Below are positions 32,031 through 49,496 of a DNA stretch of 64,000 bases, piece after piece. A model generated the notes under the pieces. That model did no database searches and had not been told where the DNA came from. It saw only the letters and a program-made list of their open reading frames with translations. Numbering within the stretch: position 1 is the first letter of the stretch; each line of letters opens with the position of its first letter. Source of the stretch: a virus; IMG/VR virus record IMGVR_UViG_3300033120_001036, positions 792 to 64,791 of that record. One strand, 5' to 3'. The position numbers and the translations under genes were made by a program.

Positions 32031-32609
32031 TCAATTATCATGCCAATCCCAAAAGTCACTAAGACTATAATCAGATAGATCATATTCTTTGTGATCTTCT
32101 AGAAATTCTTTTACTTTTTGTGTAGTAACTTCATCTCCATCTTTATGACCAGAAGCTTCTTTCATTATTCTATCAACGTGCGTCGATAGGTCATTTTCAG
32201 AACCAACACCTAATCCAACTTCTTCATCGGAGTGTTCTTTGTCTGAGAGTTTTTCAGCAGCGTCTTCATGCTTATATCTTTCCTGTAAAGAATTTGAATC
32301 ATAATCTATATGAGAGCCTCTTTTCATTTTATTATATATCACATCTGAAGCTTTATTGTGTTGTTTTTTTGTTAAACCATGTTCACTTATCTCCAACCAT
32401 TTTCCGTTTGGTTGTTTTTTGTAGTTCTTTCCGTTCCAGTTTCTGGTTTCACCAACAGTGGCTGATTTACCTTTCTCTAAAGTGTCTTCACCATTCCCAC
32501 TTAAAGTTTTGCTTTCAGCTGCTTTTTGAAGAGAATCTTTGCCAAAAAGTGATTCCAACCCAGAAACTAAATATGGGTTTGTATTAATGTATCCAGTGTT
32601 TCTGTTCAT
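32031..32609 (-). CDS. Putative head-cargo protein (leader, LQKA/LEKG sites, VGETRNWNGK module)
   Basis: Shares the leader and two near-identical blocks with ORF 42672-44555. Confidence 0.7.
   Translation of the reverse strand: MNRNTGYINTNPYLVSGLESLFGKDSLQKAAESKTLSGNGEDTLEKGKSATVGETRNWNGKNYKKQPNGKWLEISEHGLTKKQHNKASDVIYNKMKRGSHIDYDSNSLQERYKHEDAAEKLSDKEHSDEEVGLGVGSENDLSTHVDRIMKEASGHKDGDEVTTQKVKEFLEDHKEYDLSDYSLSDFWDWHDN
32206..32495. repeat. Dispersed duplication, copy 1 (blocks 32206-32252 and 32391-32495)
   Basis: Near-identical to 43819-43865 and 44022-44126; the intervening sequence is diverged. Confidence 0.9.
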
Positions 32610-34788: not shown

Positions 34789-34950
34789 TTAATTACTTAA
34801 AAATTTAACCCATTCATCGGATGTCTTCGGTTTTTGCTTAGAGTAAGCTTTTTTGTATGCAAAAGCATTTCTCTCAGATATAGCAGCAGAATTGACATAT
34901 TCTTCTATTGTCAATTTAGCTGGTTTTACCTTTTCTTCTGTTAAGCTCAT
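34789..34950 (-). CDS. Small hypothetical protein (53 aa), not in ORF track
   Basis: MSLTEEKVKPAKLTIEEYV...DEWVKFLSN*; fills the gap and follows a TATATTTG box at 34967-34974. Confidence 0.7.
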   Translation of the reverse strand: MSLTEEKVKPAKLTIEEYVNSAAISERNAFAYKKAYSKQKPKTSDEWVKFLSN

Positions 34951-34984
34951 TTCAAAATTATTTTTACAAATATAATAATTATTT

Positions 34985-35668
34985 TTAACTTTCTATTGGT
35001 GTTCCAATGAACATAAACTCTCTTGCAAAATTGTTTATTTTCATTTCTGGAACTGAAGATAAATAATTAAACGATAGAGTTAAGTTTCTGTAAAACATAT
35101 TTTTAGGAATAAAATCTGGATATTGTGCTATGTCTGCACCTGAGTATTTTATATTTCTTATTCCAAGAATCTCCATGTGTGCATTTAAAGCTATAAAAAC
35201 TGATCTTATTATATGATATAGCATAAATGTCTCGTTAGAATTGTCGCTATATATGTAGAAAGAAATACTTCCATTGAATCTTCTTTCAAAAACTTTTAAA
35301 AAAGTAGTTTCAGAAATCTCTATAATTTGATCGCTCTCACCATTAGACATAGTGTCTTGACCAGAAGAATCTTGAGAAAGATTCATAAAACAACTTAATT
35401 GTTTTTCCTGTTTTACATTATAAGTGATGTCTATGGTTAAATATCTTGGATCTGTAGGGTCATTACAGATAACACTAACAGCTTGATTAAACCAATCGTA
35501 TTTCTGTAAAGCTTTACTGTTTAAAAGCAAATAAAGCCAACTTTTATTAACACTATTGTTTAGCAAATTTTCTGCATAGTTATGTCTTATGATCTTTAAA
35601 CCAACATTTATAGTGTTGTAAATTATCAATTCTGGTGAAACTACGAGAGGTGCTTGTATTAATTCCAT
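34985..35668 (-). CDS. Tail terminator / neck protein
   Basis: Position before the sheath and typical size. Confidence 0.55.
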   Translation of the reverse strand: MELIQAPLVVSPELIIYNTINVGLKIIRHNYAENLLNNSVNKSWLYLLLNSKALQKYDWFNQAVSVICNDPTDPRYLTIDITYNVKQEKQLSCFMNLSQDSSGQDTMSNGESDQIIEISETTFLKVFERRFNGSISFYIYSDNSNETFMLYHIIRSVFIALNAHMEILGIRNIKYSGADIAQYPDFIPKNMFYRNLTLSFNYLSSVPEMKINNFAREFMFIGTPIES

Positions 35669-38674: not shown

Positions 38675-40156
38675 TTAAGCTACGTACTTGTTTGCAACGT
38701 TGATAAATCTTACAAACTTCTTACCAGCATAAAGTTGAGGTGTTCCAAATTGGAATACTATGAATCTTTTTGCCATTGCAAGAACAGCTAGATCCAATTT
38801 AGACATCGGAGCCAATTGTTTAAAGCTCATAACCTCATCGTTCATTTCAGTTAAGAAACATTGCTCTGTGTTTGGCAAGAAGTATCCTCTATCTCTAACA
38901 AGGCCAGCGGCTGCACCATGATAACCAGCTGCAAGTGAAGCTGCAGGTATCTTGAAGATTGGGAAGAAGTCTTCGTTTGTAGGAACTGGAGCTACTGTAA
39001 CCAAAGTTCTGTAGATAACAAAACCAGAAGCAGCATAAGCACCAGCACCAGCTGTGAATTTCAAATCAACTGCTTTCGTTGCAGCCAATGTGATGGCATC
39101 TGTATCCAAAACAGTCAAAGCAGATTCACCATATCTGTTGATTGCAGATACTGCGTAGAATACGTTTCCATATTCACCAGTTCCATATTTTGTCAAAGCA
39201 TCAGTAACTAATGCAACTGGTGTAGTTGGATCTGTAACTGGAGCAGCTGGAGCTTTAGATGATGTAGCTGCATCTGTAAGAATCCTAAGAGGATCATTTT
39301 TCATGAACTTATCTGGATTCAAGTTGATATTACCAACAGTAGTGGTAACTGCTTTTGGAACATCTGTGACAGTACCAGTAACAGCTTTACCGTCGATGAT
39401 AATTCTTTGCTTGTCGTAGTAGTCTTTAGAGAATGCAGACAATACTTTAGAAGGAGCAAACAATGAGTTGGCTGAACCGTGATTGTCGTCTACAATAACA
39501 GCAGCATCTTCAATGTCAGATTGTTTAAGAGATTTACCTCTCATATCAATCACAACACCAGATTTCAAATAAGCTTCCCAAGTTGGGTAAACTGATCCAG
39601 TTGAGCTACCGATGGCTGCATGTTGTTTGTAAAGTGAGTTAAACTCTTGAGGTATGATGTCCTCATCACCTTTCACAAGCGATCTGTTTGCAAGTCTCAT
39701 GATCCACATCATTTTGTTTTTGACTTCTTGAGTCATAACATTAATGAATGAGCGAGTCATTTGAGCTTGGATTGTAACTTCACCAGTCACCTGCATGTAT
39801 TTCACACGCTCAGAACGTCTGATGTATACTGAATCCTCAACGTCTGAAAGCTCACCTTCATTGTAGAATCCACCTCTATCGCTACCATAAGATTGCAATT
39901 GTAAGAATTCTTCAACAGTGTTGTAGGCTGTCAATTTAGGAATAGCGTTAAAAAGCTTTATTTCTGCAGCTTTGTATTCCAAAACTTTTAAAGTAGATTC
40001 AAGAGATTCAACTTTTAAAGGTTCTCCAGTCAAAGGTAGATTCGTGGTGTCTCTACCAGTAATGTGACCGGCTTGCATCGCTTTTACAAGCTCTGATGCT
40101 GATTGGTCTTCGTGCCCATCGAAATAATCTCCTAGGCCAACTTGATTTTGTAACAT
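38675..40156 (-). CDS. Major capsid protein (Herelleviridae / Twort-like HK97 fold)
   Basis: ELVK|AMQAG..TG.PLKVESLE, and LAPMSKLDLA...G...L.A.KKFVRFINV C-terminus. Confidence 0.95.
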   Translation of the reverse strand: MLQNQVGLGDYFDGHEDQSASELVKAMQAGHITGRDTTNLPLTGEPLKVESLESTLKVLEYKAAEIKLFNAIPKLTAYNTVEEFLQLQSYGSDRGGFYNEGELSDVEDSVYIRRSERVKYMQVTGEVTIQAQMTRSFINVMTQEVKNKMMWIMRLANRSLVKGDEDIIPQEFNSLYKQHAAIGSSTGSVYPTWEAYLKSGVVIDMRGKSLKQSDIEDAAVIVDDNHGSANSLFAPSKVLSAFSKDYYDKQRIIIDGKAVTGTVTDVPKAVTTTVGNINLNPDKFMKNDPLRILTDAATSSKAPAAPVTDPTTPVALVTDALTKYGTGEYGNVFYAVSAINRYGESALTVLDTDAITLAATKAVDLKFTAGAGAYAASGFVIYRTLVTVAPVPTNEDFFPIFKIPAASLAAGYHGAAAGLVRDRGYFLPNTEQCFLTEMNDEVMSFKQLAPMSKLDLAVLAMAKRFIVFQFGTPQLYAGKKFVRFINVANKYVA

Positions 40157-40241: not shown

Positions 40242-42059
40242 TTACAATATATCAATTTTCAAAGAACCTAAGAAAGCTCTGTCTTCTTGATCTAAATATC
40301 CTGCTATTTCAACACTTTGAATTGATTTTTCCAGTTTGTCTGCTATTTGAGTGTTACCTCTACTCATTGCAATTTCAAATTCGTTTGCCATTCTTTTAGA
40401 TAAAGCACATCTACCGTCTTTTGTGCTCATATCGAAAGCGTAAGGATCTACAACCTTACCCTCGTTTCCTTTTTCAAATCTTTCTAATGGAGCAACTCTA
40501 GCAACTGATTTTCTACCATTTGATTGGTTTCCTATTTGTTCTAATTTTTCAGTAAGAGATTCATTTTCTTGATTTGCTTTTTCTAGCTTCTCATCTATTT
40601 CAGTTACCTTGCCAACTGTTTGCTTTAAAATCTCACTCATTCCTTTAAATGATTGAGTTAAAAGTTCTACAGTTGACTGTAAAGCTTTTTCTATTTTAGA
40701 ATCAACCTCTTCTTTAGTAATACCAAGCTCTTGAAATTCTTCACCTTTTTTAAGCGAAGTGGCTGGATCTGCAGATGTTCCCAATTCTGATTGAGCACCT
40801 CCGTTATTTTTTGAACTTTCGTATTCCTTAATTATAGTTCCGGCTGCAGTCATAGATTCTTGTAAACCATAACCTTGTCTAACAAGACTTTCAGCTAAAG
40901 AATCAACGTCCATGTCTACATTACCTTTCATGATTTCATGGCAAGATTTGTAAATCTTATCATCTTTCTCTTCTGATTCAGAATGAGTCTTTTTCTCACC
41001 CTCTTCTTCATCAGAAGCAGATTCTGTTTTTTCTTCAGATTCTTCTTGGATAGATTTTCCAGACGTTCCTTTTTCTAAAGTATCTGTCAATGTATCTAAT
41101 GCCTTTAAAATTTCATCTTTGCCGAAATCCATATCGTTCTTATTTATGTAATGATTTGCAAATATAACAATTTTTTCATATACTTCAGAAGTCTGATTTG
41201 GAAAAGCTTTAACTATTAAATCTAAAGCCTTAGATTTTGTAAAGACTTCTTCTTGATTTTCAGATTTCATAATGTCTTTAGAGTTTAATTCAACATTCTT
41301 CTTAACGTATCCAGCCATTGATTCTGGCATAGGTACGTTTCCAGTATTCATTGATTTTGTAAGCTCACCCTTTAGCCAATCTACGCTAGATGGTTTTTCT
41401 GCAATTTTTGGATAACACTTTGTAAGAAAATCATCAATCTGACTTATAAACCCACCATTTTCACCTAAAATATTGTGAACATACAATATGGTTCCTAGTA
41501 CTAAATTTAAGTCTCCGTCTAAACCGTCGTCTTCGTTTGCATCTACAAGATCCATTTCTCCACCAAATTCACCTTTCATAATGTTTACTAAAGTTCTTGG
41601 ATTTTTAGGTGATGGTGTGATTGCTACGCCAGTAATCATGGCTTCTAAAACTCTCTTTTTGTTTAATGGGTCTCTTCTAGTAGCTACACCTTCTATAGAC
41701 CAACCCATACGTCTGTCTGGTGAATCTCTTTCTAGAGTTTCTATTTGTTCTACTACTTTTTTCGTGAGTGGGTTGCTTGGATATAGGAAGCCTTCTAAGT
41801 ATAAATCATTGCCAACTAGTTTTGCCATAGTTGGCTGCCCTATGTTAGCTCCTGGATCTTTGTTTGCTTGGTGATTGTAGTTTATATATCCACTTCTCAA
41901 TAATGGTTCTGTGTCAAAACCAACTGGAAATAGATTTTCTCCATCTGAATCTTTATCTACAGTAGAAGCTATACCAGCAACTTTGATAGTTTTTACACCA
42001 CCATCGTCACCCTTTTCTATTGTAAGTGGAACGAAAAACTTAAATTTGTCTTTTTCCAA
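40242..42059 (-). CDS. Prohead protease fused to scaffold
   Basis: GIAST..KDSDGE, INYNH, GWSIEG and VAITPSPKN protease motifs; acidic coiled-coil tail; about 15 [ILVF]xK[GAS] sites; TTG start. Confidence 0.92.
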   Translation of the reverse strand: MEKDKFKFFVPLTIEKGDDGGVKTIKVAGIASTVDKDSDGENLFPVGFDTEPLLRSGYINYNHQANKDPGANIGQPTMAKLVGNDLYLEGFLYPSNPLTKKVVEQIETLERDSPDRRMGWSIEGVATRRDPLNKKRVLEAMITGVAITPSPKNPRTLVNIMKGEFGGEMDLVDANEDDGLDGDLNLVLGTILYVHNILGENGGFISQIDDFLTKCYPKIAEKPSSVDWLKGELTKSMNTGNVPMPESMAGYVKKNVELNSKDIMKSENQEEVFTKSKALDLIVKAFPNQTSEVYEKIVIFANHYINKNDMDFGKDEILKALDTLTDTLEKGTSGKSIQEESEEKTESASDEEEGEKKTHSESEEKDDKIYKSCHEIMKGNVDMDVDSLAESLVRQGYGLQESMTAAGTIIKEYESSKNNGGAQSELGTSADPATSLKKGEEFQELGITKEEVDSKIEKALQSTVELLTQSFKGMSEILKQTVGKVTEIDEKLEKANQENESLTEKLEQIGNQSNGRKSVARVAPLERFEKGNEGKVVDPYAFDMSTKDGRCALSKRMANEFEIAMSRGNTQIADKLEKSIQSVEIAGYLDQEDRAFLGSLKIDIL

Positions 42060-42071
42060 AGTAGATATTTA

Positions 42072-42662
42072 TTATTTCTTGCAAATATAATAAAATTTCT
42101 CATTCTCGTTTTGAGAATTGAAATCTCCTATAATTCTAGATTTAACGAATGTTTCTTCAAGATATTCTGATGTAGTAATTAGATAGTTATCGTATGCTTG
42201 AGATTTCGTAAAAATTTCACAATTTCCCTTTATTAATGCAGCCGGTTCCCAGTTTTGTTTACTTAGAACGTCACTTATTCTCTCGTATAAATTGGGGAAA
42301 GCTAAATCAATCGTCTCAATTTCATTCAGATATAAGAATTTGTATTCAGCATGTTCTTCATAATCCAATACTATTTGAGGCAAATCTGATTCAATTCTTG
42401 CGATAAAATAGTGACTTATAGATTCACCATCTTCGTTGAAATAAGTTATACACCAATTATTGTTCTTTGCAGTAACTAATAAAGCTGTTTCTTCTGCCAA
42501 TTCTCTCATGGCCCCAAAATACAAACCTTTGTCGTTTTCAGGCTCATATTTTCCACCTGGTAAAGTCCATTGCCCTGGTTTGAAATCATCATGATCAGAC
42601 CTTCTCATCATTAAGATCTGATTGTTTTGATTAACTACTATAGTATCTACGTATTGTTGCAT
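42072..42662 (-). CDS. Nudix hydrolase
   Basis: WTLPGG.....AMRELAEET Nudix box; C-terminal tail with LIKG, FTKS and FVKS. Confidence 0.9.
   Translation of the reverse strand: MQQYVDTIVVNQNNQILMMRRSDHDDFKPGQWTLPGGKYEPENDKGLYFGAMRELAEETALLVTAKNNNWCITYFNEDGESISHYFIARIESDLPQIVLDYEEHAEYKFLYLNEIETIDLAFPNLYERISDVLSKQNWEPAALIKGNCEIFTKSQAYDNYLITTSEYLEETFVKSRIIGDFNSQNENEKFYYICKK
42082..42089 (-). promoter_or_regulatory. -7 promoter box TATATTTG for the protease-capsid operon
   Basis: Consensus match 22 nt upstream of 42059. Confidence 0.55.
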
Positions 42663-42671
42663 AATTCTTAA

Positions 42672-44555
42672 TTAATTCATTTCATTTAAGTAATCATTAA
42701 ACGCTCGACTATTTTTTATTTTTAATGTTGATTTATTTCTTTCTATAAAATCAGCTATGTTAATAGTGCCATGTGTACCTAATTTAGGTACATTTTTCTT
42801 CCATTCGCTCTGCTCTGTGTCAGTTTTTATTTTGTTCCATTTTTCAAAATCACTATTTATAATATCTACATAGGGATTTTTTGTGGTATTTTCAATTACG
42901 CTTTTAGAATCATCCTCTTTACTTGTCTCACTTGATTTAGAGCTTTTATCTTCACCATGAACTTCCAAATGATCTGGATCTAATTCGTGTTCTTCACCAT
43001 CTTCATCTTTTACTTTTGTAAAAGTTGGTTGAGAAATTAAACCAGAATTTACGTGTCCAGTAACTGTTAATTTTTTGCCTTTCAAGTGTGATAAACTAAT
43101 GAGGTTTACATCTTTACCTAACGTAACGTTTTCACCAACCTTATGTTTTTCTTCTTTCTTCTCACCCTTATTTGTTTCACTTTTTGTTGCTTTACCAACT
43201 TCACGCTCATGTCTTCCTACATGTTCTTTATGATGATCTATATGGTGTTGCTCCGCTGGTTTACTATGAGCTTCTGATATTTTTCCATCATAAACTTTTC
43301 CTTGACCACCTTCATTAACATAAACCCAACCTTCAGAGTGTTTTACATATTTTTTACCACCATACATTCTTACTTCACCAACTGTTGCTCTTTTACCACC
43401 TTTCTCAAGAATGTCTCCCTCTTGATCTTCATCTTTCCCAGTTAATGCTTTGAAGATATTGTCCAACTCATCAAATTTTTCACTAAATAGTGATTTTTTG
43501 ATTGTATCTTTTTTGGAAAGAGATTGAACTTCTTTGTGTGATAATTTTACTTTAAAATCAGCTTTATTGTTAAAATAATAATCTGCGTCTTCTGGTTTCT
43601 CTTCTTCACTACCATGAATTTTATGCGAATATTTTATTTCACCATGTTTTGGGTGATTAAATGTGTCACCTTGTTTTAAACCTTCATTAGACTCTTTTAG
43701 TTTTTTAGTAAAGTCTGATTTTTCTTTATCTGTCTTCAAAGAATGATATTTGTCTAAATTAGCATTTCTTTCCGCAGTAGTTTTACCCCAATCTAAATTG
43801 TTCATTTCAACTTTTTCCACACCCAACCCAACTTCTTCATCAGAGTGTTCTTTGTCTGAGAGTTTACTAGATTGTTCTCTATGATATTTTTCTCTGTATT
43901 TTTCAGCATAAATTCTATCATCTTCTAATTTATCTGAGTATGGTTTTAGTCTAACTGTATTGTTTTCATGTTCATACGACTTATCTTTGTGTTCTCTATT
44001 TGTTAAACCTCCTCGACTTACCTCTAACCACTTTCCATTTGGTTGTTTCTTGTAGTTCTTTCCGTTCCAATTTCTTGTTTCACCAACCATGGCTGATTTG
44101 CCTTTCTCTAAAGTGTCTTCACCATTTTTTATAGTCTGATCTAATTTATCATTCATTGCTTTACTATGAAGTTCAGCCATAGAAGAATGGTGTTGAGATT
44201 TCTCTTTAGACTCATTTGAAAGTTCAGTTAATCTCTTGTTGTGATCAAAGCCTTTATTATCCTTCTCTCCAGCACCATATTTTTTTGAACCTTCTAAATA
44301 ATGTTTTTCATTATCTTTTTGATTCTTTGCTTCTTTCATGTGAGCTGTCATTGCGTCACTATGATCTTCATGGGTGAAATCTTTAGAAGTATGAAGTGAA
44401 TTAGCATAAATAGGTTTTCCAGATTTAGTATGACCGATTACTTGGCCACCTTTTGAGCCTTCACCACCTTTTTCTAAACTATCTAAACCATAAGTTTCAG
44501 ATAGACCAGTGATTAAGTTTGGGTTTATTATTCTTCCGTATTTATCTGTTGCCAT
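42672..44555 (-). CDS. Modular His/Lys-rich putative head-cargo polyprotein
   Basis: Leader, three LEKG sites plus IKKS and IFKA sites; each LEKG is followed by a repeated module. Confidence 0.75.
   Translation of the reverse strand: MATDKYGRIINPNLITGLSETYGLDSLEKGGEGSKGGQVIGHTKSGKPIYANSLHTSKDFTHEDHSDAMTAHMKEAKNQKDNEKHYLEGSKKYGAGEKDNKGFDHNKRLTELSNESKEKSQHHSSMAELHSKAMNDKLDQTIKNGEDTLEKGKSAMVGETRNWNGKNYKKQPNGKWLEVSRGGLTNREHKDKSYEHENNTVRLKPYSDKLEDDRIYAEKYREKYHREQSSKLSDKEHSDEEVGLGVEKVEMNNLDWGKTTAERNANLDKYHSLKTDKEKSDFTKKLKESNEGLKQGDTFNHPKHGEIKYSHKIHGSEEEKPEDADYYFNNKADFKVKLSHKEVQSLSKKDTIKKSLFSEKFDELDNIFKALTGKDEDQEGDILEKGGKRATVGEVRMYGGKKYVKHSEGWVYVNEGGQGKVYDGKISEAHSKPAEQHHIDHHKEHVGRHEREVGKATKSETNKGEKKEEKHKVGENVTLGKDVNLISLSHLKGKKLTVTGHVNSGLISQPTFTKVKDEDGEEHELDPDHLEVHGEDKSSKSSETSKEDDSKSVIENTTKNPYVDIINSDFEKWNKIKTDTEQSEWKKNVPKLGTHGTINIADFIERNKSTLKIKNSRAFNDYLNEMN
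43819..44126. repeat. Dispersed duplication, copy 2 (blocks 43819-43865 and 44022-44126)
   Basis: Matches 32206-32252 and 32391-32495. Confidence 0.9.
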
Positions 44556-44583
44556 TTTAAATGATATTTTGAATTATTATTTG

Positions 44584-44610
44584 CAAATATAATATTTCCT
44601 TTCTTAAGAA
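44584..44610 (-). promoter_or_regulatory. Promoter (TATATTTG) with TTCTTAAGAA palindrome
   Basis: -7 box at 44584-44591 and palindrome at 44601-44610. Confidence 0.7.
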
Positions 44611-44647
44611 AAAACTTTTTTAACGATTATTTTTCAAAACAGACAAA

Positions 44648-45580
44648 TTAAACCCAATACTCTTTTCCATCAATTAATGCTCTAATTTTCTTTCTTATAA
44701 CTTTAGGTTGGTAATTTTCAGGCAATTTAAACATTTTTTGTTCATCGTCCCACTCATCACCTAATCTTAAATGTCTCAAACCACACCTACAATACAGATG
44801 AGTTGATCCTATAACTGGTTTCCAGTCTTCAACTTTCTTTCCAATGTTTGTTCCATTCTCTCTAAGTTCTTTTAAAAAGAAAATTTTAGGTTCGCTTCCA
44901 ATTCCTTTTGTTAAATACAATCTAACGCAGTGTTTGCAAGCTTTTTCTTGAACTACCTTGTAAACTCTTGGATTCTCTTCTAATCTTTCAATCCAAGCAG
45001 CTTTACCTAACTCATAAGCTGATTGGCATTCATATTGTACTATTCTGTCAAAATCTCTATTCCAATCACCAGTTAAATGTCCAAGATCTGAAGCTATTTG
45101 TCCAAATGTTTTCTTTTCATCCATTCCTTGAGTTACAGATCCTCTCAAAATGTCCATTTGTTGCGTCAGACTTTCGCTCTTAACTCTTGAATTTATATCA
45201 TTGTATATTTTACCATTAAGGTTTTTTATGCTTCCTAGAAATCGTATTTTGGATTCTTCAATGGTTAATCTCTCAAGTTCTGTAAGTGGTATATATTTCT
45301 TTTGACTAACAAATTCTTTAAAACTGTCAAATGTCAAAACTTTATCTAGATCTTTCTCTTGGATTCTTATTGATTCTGCTACTAAACCAAGGTAAAATTG
45401 TGTTCTTATAGGATCTTCACTTTCTGTGTATAGTTTTTCTATATCAAAACCTTTTCTTTCAAGTAGTATTTTTTCTTCTTCAGTTAAAAAGTTTGCTCCT
45501 AAATGAGACGCAATGAAAATACTTTGACTATTTTTTACAATAGAAAGTATATCTTCAATTTGTTCATCGTTTAGAGTCAT
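44648..45580 (-). CDS. MuF / SPP1 gp7-like minor head protein
   Basis: DWNRDFDRIV..E, ACKHCVRLY and HLYCRC motifs. Confidence 0.85.
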   Translation of the reverse strand: MTLNDEQIEDILSIVKNSQSIFIASHLGANFLTEEEKILLERKGFDIEKLYTESEDPIRTQFYLGLVAESIRIQEKDLDKVLTFDSFKEFVSQKKYIPLTELERLTIEESKIRFLGSIKNLNGKIYNDINSRVKSESLTQQMDILRGSVTQGMDEKKTFGQIASDLGHLTGDWNRDFDRIVQYECQSAYELGKAAWIERLEENPRVYKVVQEKACKHCVRLYLTKGIGSEPKIFFLKELRENGTNIGKKVEDWKPVIGSTHLYCRCGLRHLRLGDEWDDEQKMFKLPENYQPKVIRKKIRALIDGKEYWV

Positions 45581-45589
45581 TTTGATTTA

Positions 45590-46060
45590 TTAAAAAAGGT
45601 TTCTAGATGCACTCATGTGTTTATCAGAATTATCACCATGTTTATTGGCTTTTTCATAATGTGAATCATTATTGCTTGTGTTGTATTTACCCATATAGTG
45701 ATCTACTTTTTCTGAATGTAAGTCTGCTGCTTCTCTATGGTCTGTGCCACTAAAATTTTTATGACTTGGGTGGTTGTAAGAGTCATAAATGGGTTTTCCA
45801 CTTCTAGTATGTCCAATAACTTTTCCACCCTTAGATCCCTCTCCACCTTTCTCTAGCTTATCAAAAATATTATCTAACTCTTCAAATTTTTCACTGAATA
45901 GTGATTTTTTTAGATTGTCTGAACCAACTCTACTTTGAGCTTCACTTAATAAAGCTTTAAAGTCGTCATTTTCAGTATTGTCATCTTGAATGTAAGAAAG
46001 TAATTCTTTTATTATTTCTTGAGTTGTTAAATCTTTCATAATTTTATTAGATAATTCCAA
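45590..46060 (-). CDS. Putative head-cargo protein (KKSLFSEKF linker, LEKG, GGEGSKGG module)
   Basis: Shares two blocks with ORF 42672-44555. Confidence 0.7.
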   Translation of the reverse strand: MELSNKIMKDLTTQEIIKELLSYIQDDNTENDDFKALLSEAQSRVGSDNLKKSLFSEKFEELDNIFDKLEKGGEGSKGGKVIGHTRSGKPIYDSYNHPSHKNFSGTDHREAADLHSEKVDHYMGKYNTSNNDSHYEKANKHGDNSDKHMSASRNLF

Positions 46061-47273
46061 GCTCTTGGAACATAAATGCTATTAATTTTCTCTTATCGTA
46101 TTTTCCAGTTTCTTCTCTCTGTTCAGCAGCTTCTTGGATTACTTTAGCCAATGTCCTAGTATTCATTTGAGAAGTTTGAGCATATTCTTTGATGTCTCTC
46201 AATGTATCTAAAGCAGCTTCTTTGTCTTCTTCAGTCACATTCATTTTCTTACCTTGATAATCTCTAGGTACAACTCCAGATTTTATACTAGATAATCTTT
46301 GTAGAGTCTCATCCATATTCATAGATAGATCTATAGATGAAGCTCTTGATTCTGTAATTGGTCTAGCATCAGCATACCCACCTTCACCTGAAAGTTCTTT
46401 TTTACTTAAGTTTGTTATGAAAACCATTCTACCAGCAAATTTAAATCTTGATGGTACAAAATCTCCTTTGTCTTTTTCAGTTTCCTTTAATGGAGCAGCC
46501 CATTGAACTCTTCCTTCACCACTAGAATCTAATGCACCCTTAAGTACATTTACAATATCTTTATTTTCCCACATTGAATCACAGTCATCAAAAACTATAA
46601 TCTTATCTCTATGTTCATACATAGCTCTTTGTATAACTTGAGATCCAGTTTTTCCTGTTAATACAACGTAGTCATATTGTGGAACTACTTGGGGTGTATC
46701 GTCATCTTCTGCATTTTCTTCAGCTTCTTCTAAAACATCATCATAGTTGCGCATGCCTTCTTCTTTTGCAACCTTTTCAAAAGTATAAGTTTTACCAATA
46801 CCACCTGTCCCATAAGCCATAACTGCTTTAGGTGTTCCTTTTTTAATTAATCTCTTTAATCTAGTTTCATAAGCATCCCATTTGTCGTCTGTTGTGAAAC
46901 CATATTTAGCTAATAATTCTTCTTTTAATTTTGATTGAGCATCGTATGCTGCTTTTTTACCATATTTCTCAGCTATTTCATGTATAGCTAATTTTTGAAC
47001 TTCTGGTGAAGATAGATCTGTAGTTGATGTTGATGTAGTTGTATCTTCTGTTTTTACATGAGTTTTACTAACTTCATCTTGTTTTTTATTTCTATCACCA
47101 GCATGTTCCCAATACCAACCGTTTGGACCCTTAATTTCATACTTACCATTTGCCCTTAAGACTCTTGTTCCTATTGGTGTTGCTGGTTTACCTTTTTTTA
47201 GAATATCTAAACCGTAAGTTTCAGCCATGCCTTTTAATAAATCTGGGCTCACGTATTCACTTTGAAGATTCAT
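46047..47273 (-). CDS. AAA-family ATPase with cargo-type N-terminal leader
   Basis: Walker A GTGGIGKT, Walker B IVFDDCD, FITN; leader PDLLKGMAETYGLDILKKG. Confidence 0.8.
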   Translation of the reverse strand: MNLQSEYVSPDLLKGMAETYGLDILKKGKPATPIGTRVLRANGKYEIKGPNGWYWEHAGDRNKKQDEVSKTHVKTEDTTTSTSTTDLSSPEVQKLAIHEIAEKYGKKAAYDAQSKLKEELLAKYGFTTDDKWDAYETRLKRLIKKGTPKAVMAYGTGGIGKTYTFEKVAKEEGMRNYDDVLEEAEENAEDDDTPQVVPQYDYVVLTGKTGSQVIQRAMYEHRDKIIVFDDCDSMWENKDIVNVLKGALDSSGEGRVQWAAPLKETEKDKGDFVPSRFKFAGRMVFITNLSKKELSGEGGYADARPITESRASSIDLSMNMDETLQRLSSIKSGVVPRDYQGKKMNVTEEDKEAALDTLRDIKEYAQTSQMNTRTLAKVIQEAAEQREETGKYDKRKLIAFMFQELGII

Positions 47274-47520
47274 CTTTTAAACTTTTTAAAATTTTACCAA
47301 TGCTTAAATTTAACGAATGTGAAAAACTAGCCTTGAATCTATTTTCTAAAATAGGAATCAACTTTAACTCTGGAACCTCTTTATATGTTTCAGCTAAATT
47401 TCTTTTTATTAATTGTTGTGATTTCAATCCTTTTGAAAGATCATATTCCCATATTCCATCTTTAGCGTTGAATTTTGCAGAATGACCTATATTTAATACT
47501 GATCCGTCTTTTGCTATCAT
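47257..47520 (-). CDS. Hypothetical protein
   Basis: 87 aa, coupled to both neighbours; contains LSKG. Confidence 0.6.
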   Translation of the reverse strand: MIAKDGSVLNIGHSAKFNAKDGIWEYDLSKGLKSQQLIKRNLAETYKEVPELKLIPILENRFKASFSHSLNLSIGKILKSLKDESSK

Positions 47521-47840
47521 TATAAAAAGTCTTTTAATATCCCCATATATTTTGCTCCAGCGCCTAAACCAAAACCAATTGCTAAAGCTATTATTATGAC
47601 TTTATAGATGTCTATTTTTCTTTCTAGTTTATTGTAATTACTTTGAAGCTCCATATAGCCTCTTATAACTTTCTCAACCTCATCTTCTAATAATTGTATT
47701 TTTCTAACCATACCACCTTCTTTGGCTATATCGTCACCAATAAGAGCTACCAATATTTTGTCAACTTTTGTGTTCACATCAAATATTTGTTTTTTCATAA
47801 ATCCAAACTCCTTTTTCTCATCAGGTGTCATCTCATTCAT
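47520..47840 (-). CDS. Coiled-coil protein with C-terminal transmembrane helix
   Basis: Heptad region followed by VIIIALAIGFGLGAG. Confidence 0.65.
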   Translation of the reverse strand: MNEMTPDEKKEFGFMKKQIFDVNTKVDKILVALIGDDIAKEGGMVRKIQLLEDEVEKVIRGYMELQSNYNKLERKIDIYKVIIIALAIGFGLGAGAKYMGILKDFL

Positions 47841-47843
47841 TTT

Positions 47844-49496
47844 TTACAATTTAGAAATATAGTCATTAAAATTATTTACAAAAGGATTTGCTTCTAAACC
47901 TTTTTTAACGTCTTCTTCTACTGCATCTGTATTTTGCTGATCGCCCATTTGCATCATTTGATTTTGTTGAAATAAAGAAATATAAGAAGGGTTCATCGGC
48001 ATGTCTCCAAATTCTAGTGGATCTAGATCTCTTTTTGCTCTTATTTCATTTAATTTAGCGAAACTATTAACTGCCTTTATGTCGTTGTCTAACTCAACTT
48101 GTTCTGTTGTAGAATCTAAACCAACAAATTTTAGCTCGTACCCTGGGTGTAATTGAGATACTACATACTTATTTAACCAGAATTCTATTTGTTTCAATAA
48201 AGGAGTCAAACCTTTTTCTTTAGAGTACTGAAGTTTATATTCACCACTTGCATTTCCAAGACCACCACCACCTCCATCAGTGTTCCCATCTAAATGGAAA
48301 CCAAATTCAGTTGGATCTATTGTGTAAACTGCAGAACAAATTTTAATTAAAAATTCTTGGTACTTACTATACTCCATGTCTCTATTAGATTCATGCGTAG
48401 AAATCCAATCTATTTTGTCTGCGTTTACTATAGGTGTTTTATGCATATTCTCAACACCAGCCATTTGAGCTTGCCATTGACCTCTAAAGTCTTCAAGCGT
48501 ATTCATGTTGATGTTTCCAGAATACCTTAACAAACCTCTTGGATTAGATCCAACCTTAAAGAAATTTGAATTGTATTGATCTGAGTTAAGTAATGCAGTT
48601 ACTGTTTTTATTAAATCTTCAAGCTCTGAATTACCATATCCATTCGTAAGAATATCAGTAGACTGGTTTCTTACACCCATACATAATTCCCATGGGTAGA
48701 ATTGTGCTTCTACTTTAGAATGAATAACTTGAGCATATTGTGGTAAATATCCTTGAATCGTTAAATCGTCCAACTGTTTTTCGCTTAAATGAGAATAATC
48801 TGCCATTCTCATTGTAGCTCCATCCACTGCAAAAAATTCAACAGGTTGTCCCATTTTATTTCTTACAACTTCAAAACATGCTTGATCTAAGGTTAATGAA
48901 TCATCTGTAAGTAATCTTAAAAAGTTTTCGAATGTAGATGCATGCCAAATATTTTGACGAGTACCACAATCTAATATAAATTGAGTTATATAATCTATTT
49001 GTTTTTCTTCTTGAGCTGAAAGTTTTGTTTCTTTTGTTCCATTTCTAGATTTCTGAATCTTTTGAATTACAAAACCAGTTGAGTATTTATCTTTCTGTGG
49101 TTGCGCAAAAGATGCTATCTGGTTCTTTCTTGTTTTTATAATGGCATTAACTATATGTGTCTTACTCATCTTACGTAAGATGTCATAAGAAAGCGTATAG
49201 TATTTGTCTTTATAACCGTTTCCAGATCTTAAATCAAGTGGATCTATTAATAATGATTTACCAGCACCATCTTCTCTTTTCTGAATTGAGTTTATATATT
49301 TTCTTGCAGAATAGATTTTATTGATGTCGTCTGATTGAAGTGCTTTCTTGAGATTAATCTCTTTTTGAAGACTTAGAAGATGAATCTGACTATCAATATC
49401 ATTCATTGAAGAATTTAAATCTATTATTTTTGGCGCTCCAATTATATTTGGAGACACAATAGATTTAATTAATTTCTTATCTCTTCTTTTACTCAC
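47844..49496 (-). CDS. Portal protein
   Basis: DSLTLDQ..FE, VDGAT, GYG.SELE, RDMEY and NEIRA..DLDP motifs; GTG start. Confidence 0.93.
   Translation of the reverse strand: MSKRRDKKLIKSIVSPNIIGAPKIIDLNSSMNDIDSQIHLLSLQKEINLKKALQSDDINKIYSARKYINSIQKREDGAGKSLLIDPLDLRSGNGYKDKYYTLSYDILRKMSKTHIVNAIIKTRKNQIASFAQPQKDKYSTGFVIQKIQKSRNGTKETKLSAQEEKQIDYITQFILDCGTRQNIWHASTFENFLRLLTDDSLTLDQACFEVVRNKMGQPVEFFAVDGATMRMADYSHLSEKQLDDLTIQGYLPQYAQVIHSKVEAQFYPWELCMGVRNQSTDILTNGYGNSELEDLIKTVTALLNSDQYNSNFFKVGSNPRGLLRYSGNINMNTLEDFRGQWQAQMAGVENMHKTPIVNADKIDWISTHESNRDMEYSKYQEFLIKICSAVYTIDPTEFGFHLDGNTDGGGGGLGNASGEYKLQYSKEKGLTPLLKQIEFWLNKYVVSQLHPGYELKFVGLDSTTEQVELDNDIKAVNSFAKLNEIRAKRDLDPLEFGDMPMNPSYISLFQQNQMMQMGDQQNTDAVEEDVKKGLEANPFVNNFNDYISKL

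Follow-up and report, generated by a model that had tools for sequence, protein, structure and literature searches.

Two conserved modules behind predicted prohead protease sites in a putative head-cargo polyprotein of an uncultured phage

Module copies and predicted units of ORF 42672

The virus record IMGVR_UViG_3300033120_001036 of IMG/VR comprises 64,791 bases and is estimated to be 53% complete. The window, which is the whole stretch of DNA analysed here, has 64,000 nucleotides (positions 792 to 64,791 of the record) and is nearly all of it. Within a head-morphogenesis block of the window lies an open reading frame (ORF) of 627 amino acid residues, ORF 42672. This ORF is the subject of the present study, together with two short conserved modules, A and B, which it shares with ORF 45590 and ORF 32031. 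The parts of ORF 42672 and its two siblings are as follows (window positions; the arrow in a peptide marks the presumed cut).

42672..44555, minus strand: ORF 42672, 627 residues, predicted head-cargo polyprotein precursor; no Pfam or PHROG match
44469..44555, minus strand: leader 1, residues 1-29, acidic, isoelectric point (pI) 4.8, ending YGLDSLEK29↓G30
44103..44468, minus strand: predicted product 1, residues 30-151, 13.6 kDa; Gly-rich head GGEGSKGG, then module A (core 44256-44441)
43494..44102, minus strand: predicted product 2, residues 152-354, 23.8 kDa; follows TLEK151↓G152; module B type 1 (core 43998-44087)
43401..43493, minus strand: spacer ("leader 2"), residues 355-385, 3.6 kDa, pI 4.1, SLFSEKFDELDNIF...; between TIKK354↓S and ILEK385↓G
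42675..43400, minus strand: predicted product 3, residues 386-627, 27.3 kDa; module B type 2 (core 43293-43382)
45590..46060, minus strand: ORF 45590, 156 residues; propeptide 1-71 with NLKK52↓S and KLEK71↓G, then an 85-residue stand-alone module A protein
45593-45847, minus strand: predicted mature part of ORF 45590 (A core 45635-45820)
32031..32609, minus strand: ORF 32031, 192 residues, in the tail-gene block; leader with SLQK29↓A and TLEK46↓G, then module B type 1 (core 32367-32456)

It was found that module A (GG.GS.GG...IGHT.SGKPIY) occurs exactly twice, once in ORF 42672 (44406-44435) and once in ORF 45590 (45785-45814). Module B (G[EK].R.[WY].G...) has three clear copies, of which two belong to ORF 42672 (44028-44084 and 43326-43379) and one to ORF 32031 (32397-32453). 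These three score 44-46 bits with a hidden Markov model (HMM) of the B core built without any site residue, and a profile search of the whole 64,791-base record gave no further copy of A or B. All five clear copies sit behind an L-E-K↓G junction and start 4-10 residues after it, while L[EKQ]KG is rare in the window (11 matches in the 257 stop-to-stop frames of at least 50 residues). A first-pass annotation, made from the letters of the window, had counted two copies of A in these same ORFs and three of B, and both counts were reproduced. It had also placed a diverged copy of B in the ATPase, which fared less well.

47109..47192, minus strand: candidate diverged copy of module B, heading the mature AAA ATPase, after DILKK27↓G28; no support from the independent profile

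This putative sixth copy (LKK↓GKPATPIGTRVLRANGKYEIKGPNGW, around 47109-47192) does have the letters that were quoted for it. However, it went undetected by the independent B-core HMM at an E value of up to 50, with the filters off, among 414 frames, and its high score in one search arises solely from its being a row of that alignment. The same HMM does detect the copy that heads the ATPase of the cultured Chryseobacterium phage MA9V-3 (25.5 bits). At the same position, ATPase homologues of related loci carry a canonical B (L048/L050, L040, L042, and L068) or an A (L066 and L010/L051). Thus, the window copy is plausible by its position, where the homologues carry a canonical module, and by that only, since the profile misses it.

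The candidate cuts in ORF 42672 are K29↓G, K151↓G, K354↓S, and K385↓G; K369↓A and K455↓A are also possible. Predicted product 2 consists of the type 1 B module, a tail ending SDKEHSDEEVGLGV, and a middle domain, and predicted product 3 holds, besides the type 2 B module, a His-rich helix and an unannotated C-terminal domain. The pI values of predicted products 1, 2, and 3 are 6.9, 8.9, and 7.0, respectively. Leaders related to leader 1 start the ATPase and ORF 32031, and the pattern shared by the three proteins (..NP.L..G..E.(Y/F)G.D.L.K) is also recognizable in leaders of their homologues. It was revealed that the spacer SLFSEKFDELDNIF... of ORF 42672 is the same peptide as the end of the N-terminal propeptide of ORF 45590, where it stands before module A. 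Thus, an internal segment of ORF 42672, lying between two sites, is built like an independent precursor. These sites, units, and spacer agree with the earlier proposal that ORF 42672 gives three module-headed products, and the sequence makes it likely that ORF 42672 is a polyprotein that is cut at the junctions. The modules are also distinct from the leader, as had been supposed: the same leader stands before A in one protein and before B in another, and the ATPase family has A, B, or still other heads in this position.

Parts of the module units are recent DNA duplicates. The B unit of ORF 32031 is 87-94% identical in DNA to a copy in ORF 42672 over two blocks, one of 140 nucleotides (87% identity; 32356-32495 versus 43987-44126), which spans the site and B, and one of 47 nucleotides (94%; 32206-32252 versus 43819-43865). 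A further repeat of 47 nucleotides (89%; 43453-43499 versus 45864-45910) spans the spacer SLFSEKF.ELDNIF. The same units vary among related phages. The orthologue in locus L002, whose MuF-like protein is 94% identical to that of the window, shares residues 1-144 and 341-457 of ORF 42672. It lacks residues around 145-340, which make up the type 1 B unit and the middle domain, and its likeness to ORF 42672 stops after VGK455↓A, the additional candidate site in predicted product 3. Thus, the differences are whole units with borders near junctions. L002 has no ATPase gene and has instead an ORF of 64 residues consisting of an ATPase-type leader and module A (L002:7546-7737; also in L003, L004, and L049). 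Another gene of this locus (L002:8990-11137) encodes a cargo protein of 715 residues in which leader 1 and leader 2 are followed by B and then by a large C-terminal domain that has no annotation. In ORF 42672, tblastn matches in cultured phages are confined to the middle domain of product 2 (43521-43859, residues 233-345); these phages are the Tenacibaculum phages PTm1, PTm5, and pT24 (44-50% identity); the match in pT24 underlies a gene annotated as DNA ligase 1.

The Lys junction and the two modules

The presumed cutting enzyme and the reference site for its specificity are encoded nearby.

40242..42059, minus strand: prohead protease (residues 1-165) fused to a scaffold-like tail, with 15 phi-x-K-[GAS] motifs; presumed cutting enzyme
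40082..40156, minus strand: capsid propeptide, predicted 25 residues, ending SELVK25↓A26; reference site for the protease specificity

The protease domain is 35.9% identical to the prohead protease of phage K over 99% of the domain (E value 1e-17) and is matched by 758 phage records. Homologues of the capsid protein are SPO1 Gp6.1 (E value 5.7e-50) and the phage 812-type Staphylococcus phage protein of PDB 5lii (E value 9.8e-10). Both the protease and the capsid protein are therefore homologous to those of Herelleviridae-type phages. In the ungapped start of the alignment, K25↓A26 of the capsid protein coincides with K24↓S25 of 5lii. The chain of 9row, 9rox, and 9roz has 439 residues, compared with 463 in 5lii, and its numbering is shifted by 24; thus, the 9row chain begins at S25, directly behind V-V-K. 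The capsid homologues from related loci have a variable N-terminus ending (E)L-x-K↓A(M/L)..G..TGRD in 19 of the 19 N-terminally complete sequences (23 matches less one truncated and three protease proteins).

If the reference site is written as phi-x-K-[GAS], where phi is a hydrophobic residue, the protease-scaffold protein contains 15 such motifs, compared with 3.6 expected in shuffled sequence. Of the 15, 13 are located past the protease domain, which fits a scaffold that gets chopped up. The Nudix protein has three versus 0.5 expected, while most of the 75 ORFs are near the expected number; the Nudix motifs (LIK↓G, FTK↓S, and FVK↓S) are in its C-terminal tail. The junctions before A (n=212) and before B (n=124) share D/N/E at P5, D/E at P4, and E at P2, none of which was imposed by the search pattern, and the P1 Lys is invariant in a 20-row B alignment. 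In AlphaFold2 models, the site and the Gly-rich head have a predicted local distance difference test (pLDDT) score of 51-61, as expected for unstructured segments, and the modules have 86-93. Four independent lines of evidence, namely the homology of the protease and the capsid protein, the capsid N-termini, the motif counts, and the preferences at the junctions, make it very probable that L-E-K↓G represents the site of the prohead protease, phi-x-K↓(G/A/S), and the end of the leader would be the motif of the phage's own enzyme. Each module would then start a mature product. Self-cleavage by module A, which has a conserved Ser, Lys, and His, was considered and rejected, as this junction is also found before module B, which is unrelated, and at the end of the capsid propeptide.

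Is a module behind a Lys site common in other phages? A and B were aligned separately, and the profiles used for the statistics exclude the site residues. In 70 viral loci found with the site-free A alignment, the motif stands no more than 16 residues upstream of 93 A copies out of 119 (non-redundant) and is missing there for the other 26, while all 23 B copies of those loci have it (by a lenient pattern; one is doubtful). Since the B alignment yielded two viral loci only, B was surveyed by protein searches. The site-free B profile matched 86 proteins, 84 of them at an E value of 1e-3 or below. The motif lies 4-8 residues upstream in 130 of 134 non-redundant B copies (from 109 of the 170 proteins examined), and in 125 of these 130 at 5-6 residues; four copies have no motif.

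For A, the site-free profile was run against 1.84 billion representatives and matched 1,864 proteins, each standing for a cluster at 50% identity, at an E value of 0.001 or below (779 at 1e-10 or below), with up to nine matched A stretches per protein. The motif lies at 7-13 residues in 214 of 326 assessable copies, which come from 132 new proteins among the best 150 of the 1,864 matches; the background is 9.1%. The other 112 copies have no K site, and 43 of them keep the Gly-rich head while 69 have neither. The first-pass statement that the modules always come right after the site thus holds for the five window copies and almost always for B, but not for A. Homologues without a K↓G site do exist for A, in the same kind of protein, and are essentially absent for B. 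No occurrence of A or B was found in a non-virion protein or a non-phage setting; among 185,579 species genomes, A was matched in two, once on a 3.9-kb contig of a metagenome-assembled genome and once weakly.

The A copies with and without a site also differ in themselves. At core position 4, the site-linked copies have His (IGHT) in 177 cases and Lys in five, while the site-less ones have Lys (IGKT) in 38 and His in 29 (P0171-P0303), which suggests two subtypes of module A. Several site-less copies are second copies 70-80 residues behind a site-linked one of the same protein (L018, L042, and L005). In other lineages, the Gly-rich head and the A core go with other motifs, each consistent in itself: RLAxE↓(I/V/T)GPRGG (P0178, P0207, P0212, P0219, P0258, and P0274) or x-D-(A/Q/T)↓GGEGSRGG (P0199, P0216, P0223, P0271, and P0278). 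These junctions without Lys may be sites of proteases with other specificity. As the same Gly-rich head and A core stand behind other motifs, the header looks kept while the protease specificity changed.

ORF 42672 has 91 metagenomic relatives, all of them mosaic, with at most five pattern-matched A copies per protein. The cargo joined to A or B in relatives includes NUDIX, Zeta_toxin, mCpol, S-AdoMet lyase, PF01028, PF18823, PF18796, and PF18905; PF01028 is Topoisom_I, PF18823 is InPase, and PF18796 is LPD1. Single relatives combine NUDIX with Zeta_toxin, or NUDIX with mCpol and S-AdoMet lyase. No peptidase family was found in ORF 42672 or in the ten relatives scanned. In two loci (L024:4573-7872 and L027:4573-7872), one protein of 1,100 residues comprises a protease domain, three A copies, and an AAA ATPase, so that cargo and headers belong to the protease-scaffold protein itself.

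Modules A and B are not related, yet one can stand in place of the other. In the AlphaFold2 model of A, a hairpin (VIGH / PIY) is joined by one short and two long helices, and the pLDDT is close to 90 for model residues 21-60. Conserved residues include, in the hairpin, I, G, T, S, G, K, and Y and, in DH.DA, the H and the A; A has four conserved His. The model of B type 2 has five short strands and a helix. B type 1 runs on as GKWLEVSEHG(M/L)TKKEH and finishes SDKE(H/Y)SDEE. In the first-pass annotation, the modules were described as small basic beta-hairpin tags. The models do not bear out the hairpin tags, as they give folded domains instead, a hairpin with helices for A and a five-strand sheet with a helix for B. 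The word basic suits the B core (mean net charge +2.4) and the A hairpin (+1.9), but not the whole A core (+0.3), which has 6.3 His per 62 residues. Since the A core is neutral and His-rich, a DNA-binding role is unsupported.

Searches with the isolated A and B units gave no Pfam family at an E value of up to 10 and no PHROG at up to 0.01, and Pfam and PHROG scans of ORF 45590 and ORF 32031 gave no family. With Foldseek, neither model had a match in the PDB at an E value of 0.001 or below. The ESM Atlas gave no usable feature match for the modules, with all structural rows at a template modelling (TM) score of 0.34 or below. With VIA-align, the best Z score of B was 4.9, against polo-box and sulfatase C-terminal domains, and that of A was 6.9, against ribosomal helical hairpins; neither reaches what the tool regards as meaningful. 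For a likeness of B to choline- or cell-wall-binding hairpin repeats, Foldseek gave an E value of 0.67-0.98 with a TM score below 0.2, and the Atlas gave a TM score of 0.30-0.34. From these models, neither a known fold nor a new fold is claimed for A or B.

A and B are small, widespread domains for which no prior description was found: no publication on them was retrieved, and SGKPIY, GHTKSGK, GEVRTWGG, and DUF6496 occurred in none of the texts searched, supplements not included; the alignments of domains in Iyer et al. 2017 and the tables of SPN3US sites may bear on earlier sightings. The Pfam family DUF6496 behaves as a third header-like module, found in relatives behind DIEK↓S (P0017), IKK↓A (P0028), and IEK↓D (P0075), where it ends SEAGLSK right before the next junction. 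It is absent in the window.

A possible route for head-carried proteins

It is rather likely that ORF 42672 as a whole is a precursor of head-carried proteins, cut by the phage's own protease into module-headed products. The proposed steps are as follows. Removable leaders would bring the precursors into the assembling core. The prohead protease of ORF 40242-42059, of the phage K and SPO1 type, would cut after Lys in acidic-acidic-(L/I/F)-(E)-K↓(G/A/S). Cuts at K29, K151, K354, and K385 would remove the acidic leader of 29 residues and the acidic spacer of 31 residues, and would release products of 13.6, 23.8, and 27.3 kDa. Each product would begin with a short flexible tail followed by a small folded header domain. 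Header A would be the hairpin IGHTKSGKPIY with a helical hairpin bearing His and Asp, and header B a small beta sheet on GE(V/I)RxWGGxKYxKxxxGW. Relatives place A or B between like leaders and widely differing cargo, such as an AAA ATPase, Nudix, a Zeta-toxin-like kinase, mCpol, or S-AdoMet lyase. The header would stay on the released piece and dock to a conserved virion partner, which may be the scaffold-protease core, the portal or tail channel, or DNA. Docking would hold the pieces in the head and let them exit with the DNA. This last step, the docking of the header, is put forward only tentatively.

An extension of this proposal is that the header, and not the leader, is the conserved signal. 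A and B, possibly along with DUF6496, would act as portable address domains at the N-terminus of every piece released by the protease, needed for head retention and tail exit, in the manner of a secretion-signal-like code for injected proteins. I regard this extension as doubtful, although the lineages in which the Gly-rich head and the A core go with junctions other than Lys lend it some support. If it were true, any cargo might be loaded and delivered by adding a leader, a site, and a header.

Several observations weigh against the proposed route. As 112 of the 326 A copies have no K site, A needs no cut at its N-terminus. Some B copies stand behind leaders of only 4-9 residues (P0124, P0139, and the ATPase of MA9V-3), which is hard to reconcile with the leader as a loading signal. 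The Nudix protein of MA9V-3 ends in a weak B copy (15.1 / 3.3 bits) after IEK↓S; this copy, lying at the C-terminal end, would be cut off and would not head a product. The fold searches gave no functional lead for A or B, and their cores had no tblastn match in 50,697 GenBank phage records. Moreover, the one piece of evidence for a Lys-small cleavage by a Herelleviridae-type protease is the 9row chain starting at residue 25 of 5lii. This start is taken as the mature N-terminus from the chain length and the numbering in the printed alignments, and no publication giving a Lys cleavage site of Herelleviridae capsid proteins was found.

The main alternative is that the modules act before the cut, docking on an exosite of the protease-scaffold protein so as to load the cargo and direct the cut, with no later role. 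It would account for the almost obligatory site before B (130 of 134), even where the leader has 4-9 residues, for the extreme conservation of the residues just past the cut (GEGS[KR]GG, or GGKRA), for the fusion of protease, three A modules, and ATPase in L024 and L027, and for B as a possible removable C-terminal tag on the Nudix protein of MA9V-3. However, the sites of the capsid and scaffold proteins have no module behind them, 69 of the 326 A copies have neither site nor Gly-rich head, and the stand-alone A proteins and the proteins with up to nine A stretches look like products themselves. A role confined to the time before the cut thus seems a possible but weak candidate. It is rather unlikely, as I see it, that A and B are basic DNA-binding or ejection tags acting on the mature products in the head or during exit, as proposed in the first-pass annotation. 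Both modules begin with beta hairpins, one of them would head every released product, the A hairpin and the B core carry mean net charges of +1.9 and +2.4, and the weak Foldseek rows for B include PC4, Pur-alpha, and MotA (E value 0.76-1.3). Against this stand the charge of the whole, His-rich A core (+0.3), the pI values of the products (6.9, 8.9, and 7.0), and the lack of a significant fold match (none at an E value of 0.001 or below with Foldseek; VIA-align Z 4.9 for B and 6.9, from generic helical hairpins, for A).

Two further alternatives concern the junction itself. If phi-x-K-G were a structural part of the modules, ORF 42672 would remain a single chain of 627 residues and the likeness to the capsid site would be coincidental. 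The Lys is indeed as invariant as the B core residues, and the motif persists behind very short leaders. However, it precedes two unrelated folds, ends the capsid propeptide, is fourfold enriched in the scaffold tail, and lies in the low-confidence, unstructured part of both models, and the spacer of ORF 42672, which equals the N-terminal propeptide of ORF 45590, has the motif at both ends. An uncut motif is therefore quite improbable. It is also conceivable that the junctions are cassettes kept mainly as DNA homology for cargo-shuffling recombination, the peptides having no function. This would suit the 87-94% DNA repeats among ORF 32031, ORF 42672, and ORF 45590, the units that differ at junctions between 94%-related phages, and the 64-residue ORF of L002 with its ATPase leader and module A. 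However, the two A copies of the window are alike as proteins and are not DNA repeats at the thresholds used, and the A protein is conserved over 1,864 clusters (50% identity) and folds with high confidence, so that very little credit can be given to functionless cassettes.

How does the proposed route, a leader removed by the prohead protease and several headed products, compare with known systems? In T4, the internal proteins IPI-III and Alt bear a capsid-targeting sequence that is cut by gp21, and they are carried in the head and injected. The T4 gp21 protease cuts after Glu (L/I-x-E). As in T4, a short common N-terminal leader here starts unrelated proteins and ends at what would be the phage protease's own site, but the predicted cut follows Lys instead of Glu. 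The T4 cargo proteins are single products without a conserved domain behind the cut, while a single chain here would be split into several, with A or B at the head of each. The protease here is of the Herelleviridae type.

Like those of SPN3US, phiKZ, and 201phi2-1, the head proteins considered here would be trimmed by a prohead protease at a short motif. According to passages of the SPN3US study (PMC10052503), there are 14 cleavage sites in nine head proteins, long propeptides are cut at several sites, and the abundant internal paralogues gp53 and gp54 are among the substrates. The same passages state that the cuts follow Glu and that all remove N-terminal propeptides except the protease's own C-terminal one (PMC10052503). 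The Lys site, the multi-product polyprotein, and the conserved headers behind the cut depart from that account, as far as these passages go. From the sequences, Lys specificity, multiple products per chain, and post-cleavage headers would set this system apart from the processed head proteins of T4, SPN3US, and phiKZ.

Polyvalent proteins of phages and conjugative elements, as described in passages of Iyer et al. 2017 (PMC5512222), are large mosaics among late and head genes that link counter-defence enzymes, and their processing was proposed to be carried out by a built-in zincin-like MPTase domain. Those passages mention neither the A and B modules nor a prohead protease as the processing enzyme (PMC5512222). 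The cargo repertoire of the A and B relatives (NUDIX, Zeta_toxin, mCpol, and S-AdoMet lyase) matches theirs, but no peptidase domain was found in the cargo and the junctions bear the prohead protease motif. ORF 42672 itself, with no Pfam or PHROG domain, has no recognizable enzyme domain, whereas polyvalent proteins have at least two effector or enzyme domains. The phage resembles the Herelleviridae (phage K, 812, and SPO1) in its homologous protease and capsid protein and in a propeptide that ends hydrophobic-x-Lys↓small at the aligned position, and differs from them in having A and B, which tblastn did not find in the GenBank phage records.

Proteins packed in the head and injected are a main route by which phages counter bacterial defence. 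Apart from T4, P1, and the phiKZ group, little is known of how phages select such proteins, trim them, and deliver them. The order of leader, phi-x-K↓G/A/S, header A or B, and cargo amounts to a rule at the level of sequence for a large group of phages, nearly all of them uncultured, by which head cargo may be predicted from sequence. It suggests a general way for phages to load and trim head-carried proteins, and that at least some polyvalent cargo may be true polyproteins cut by the capsid protease, with no part for an internal peptidase. A design for packing foreign proteins into phage heads, open to testing, follows from the same order. The cultured phage MA9V-3, which carries four copies of module B by profile, every one within its head block, may be used as a test system for the rule.

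Setting of the head block

The GC content is around 30%, and the listed genes between 30000 and 50000 are all on the minus strand. The head-morphogenesis block has the order portal, ATPase, ORF 45590, MuF-like protein, ORF 42672, Nudix, protease-scaffold, and capsid, so that the gene position of ORF 42672 is within the block, as for processed head cargo. Its remaining members are the following.

47844-49496, minus strand: portal
46047-47273, minus strand: AAA ATPase (ORF)
44648-45580, minus strand: MuF-like protein, 310 residues, conserved; named as in the first-pass annotation
42072-42662, minus strand: Nudix
38675-40156, minus strand: major capsid protein (ORF)

ORF 44648-45580, earlier taken for a MuF or SPP1 gp7 protein, has no Phage_Mu_F match and no Pfam or PHROG family. 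Its gene is conserved beside the cargo genes in relatives. In 47 of the 75 related loci, the module genes are found amid portal, MuF-like, protease, and capsid genes, and 27 of the 39 loci of at least 12 kb have module genes together with head genes. Among cultured phages, Chryseobacterium phage MA9V-3 comes closest, with 59.9% identity in the capsid protein. The Bacteroides DAC phages, together with the SPO1 and phage K group, are more remote, and neither A nor B is present in Bacteroides phage DAC19.

In 41900-47600, sigma-70-type promoters are not enriched (24 found versus a mean of 24.7), and neither are terminators (two versus 1.9). An AT-rich repeat of 37 nucleotides (73% identity) containing TATATTTGCAAATA was found at 44566-44602 and 34949-34985. 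The first copy sits about 30 nucleotides upstream of the start of ORF 42672, and the second lies between the sheath gene and the preceding gene. The repeat seems to resemble the Bacteroidota -7 promoter element, TAnnTTTG.

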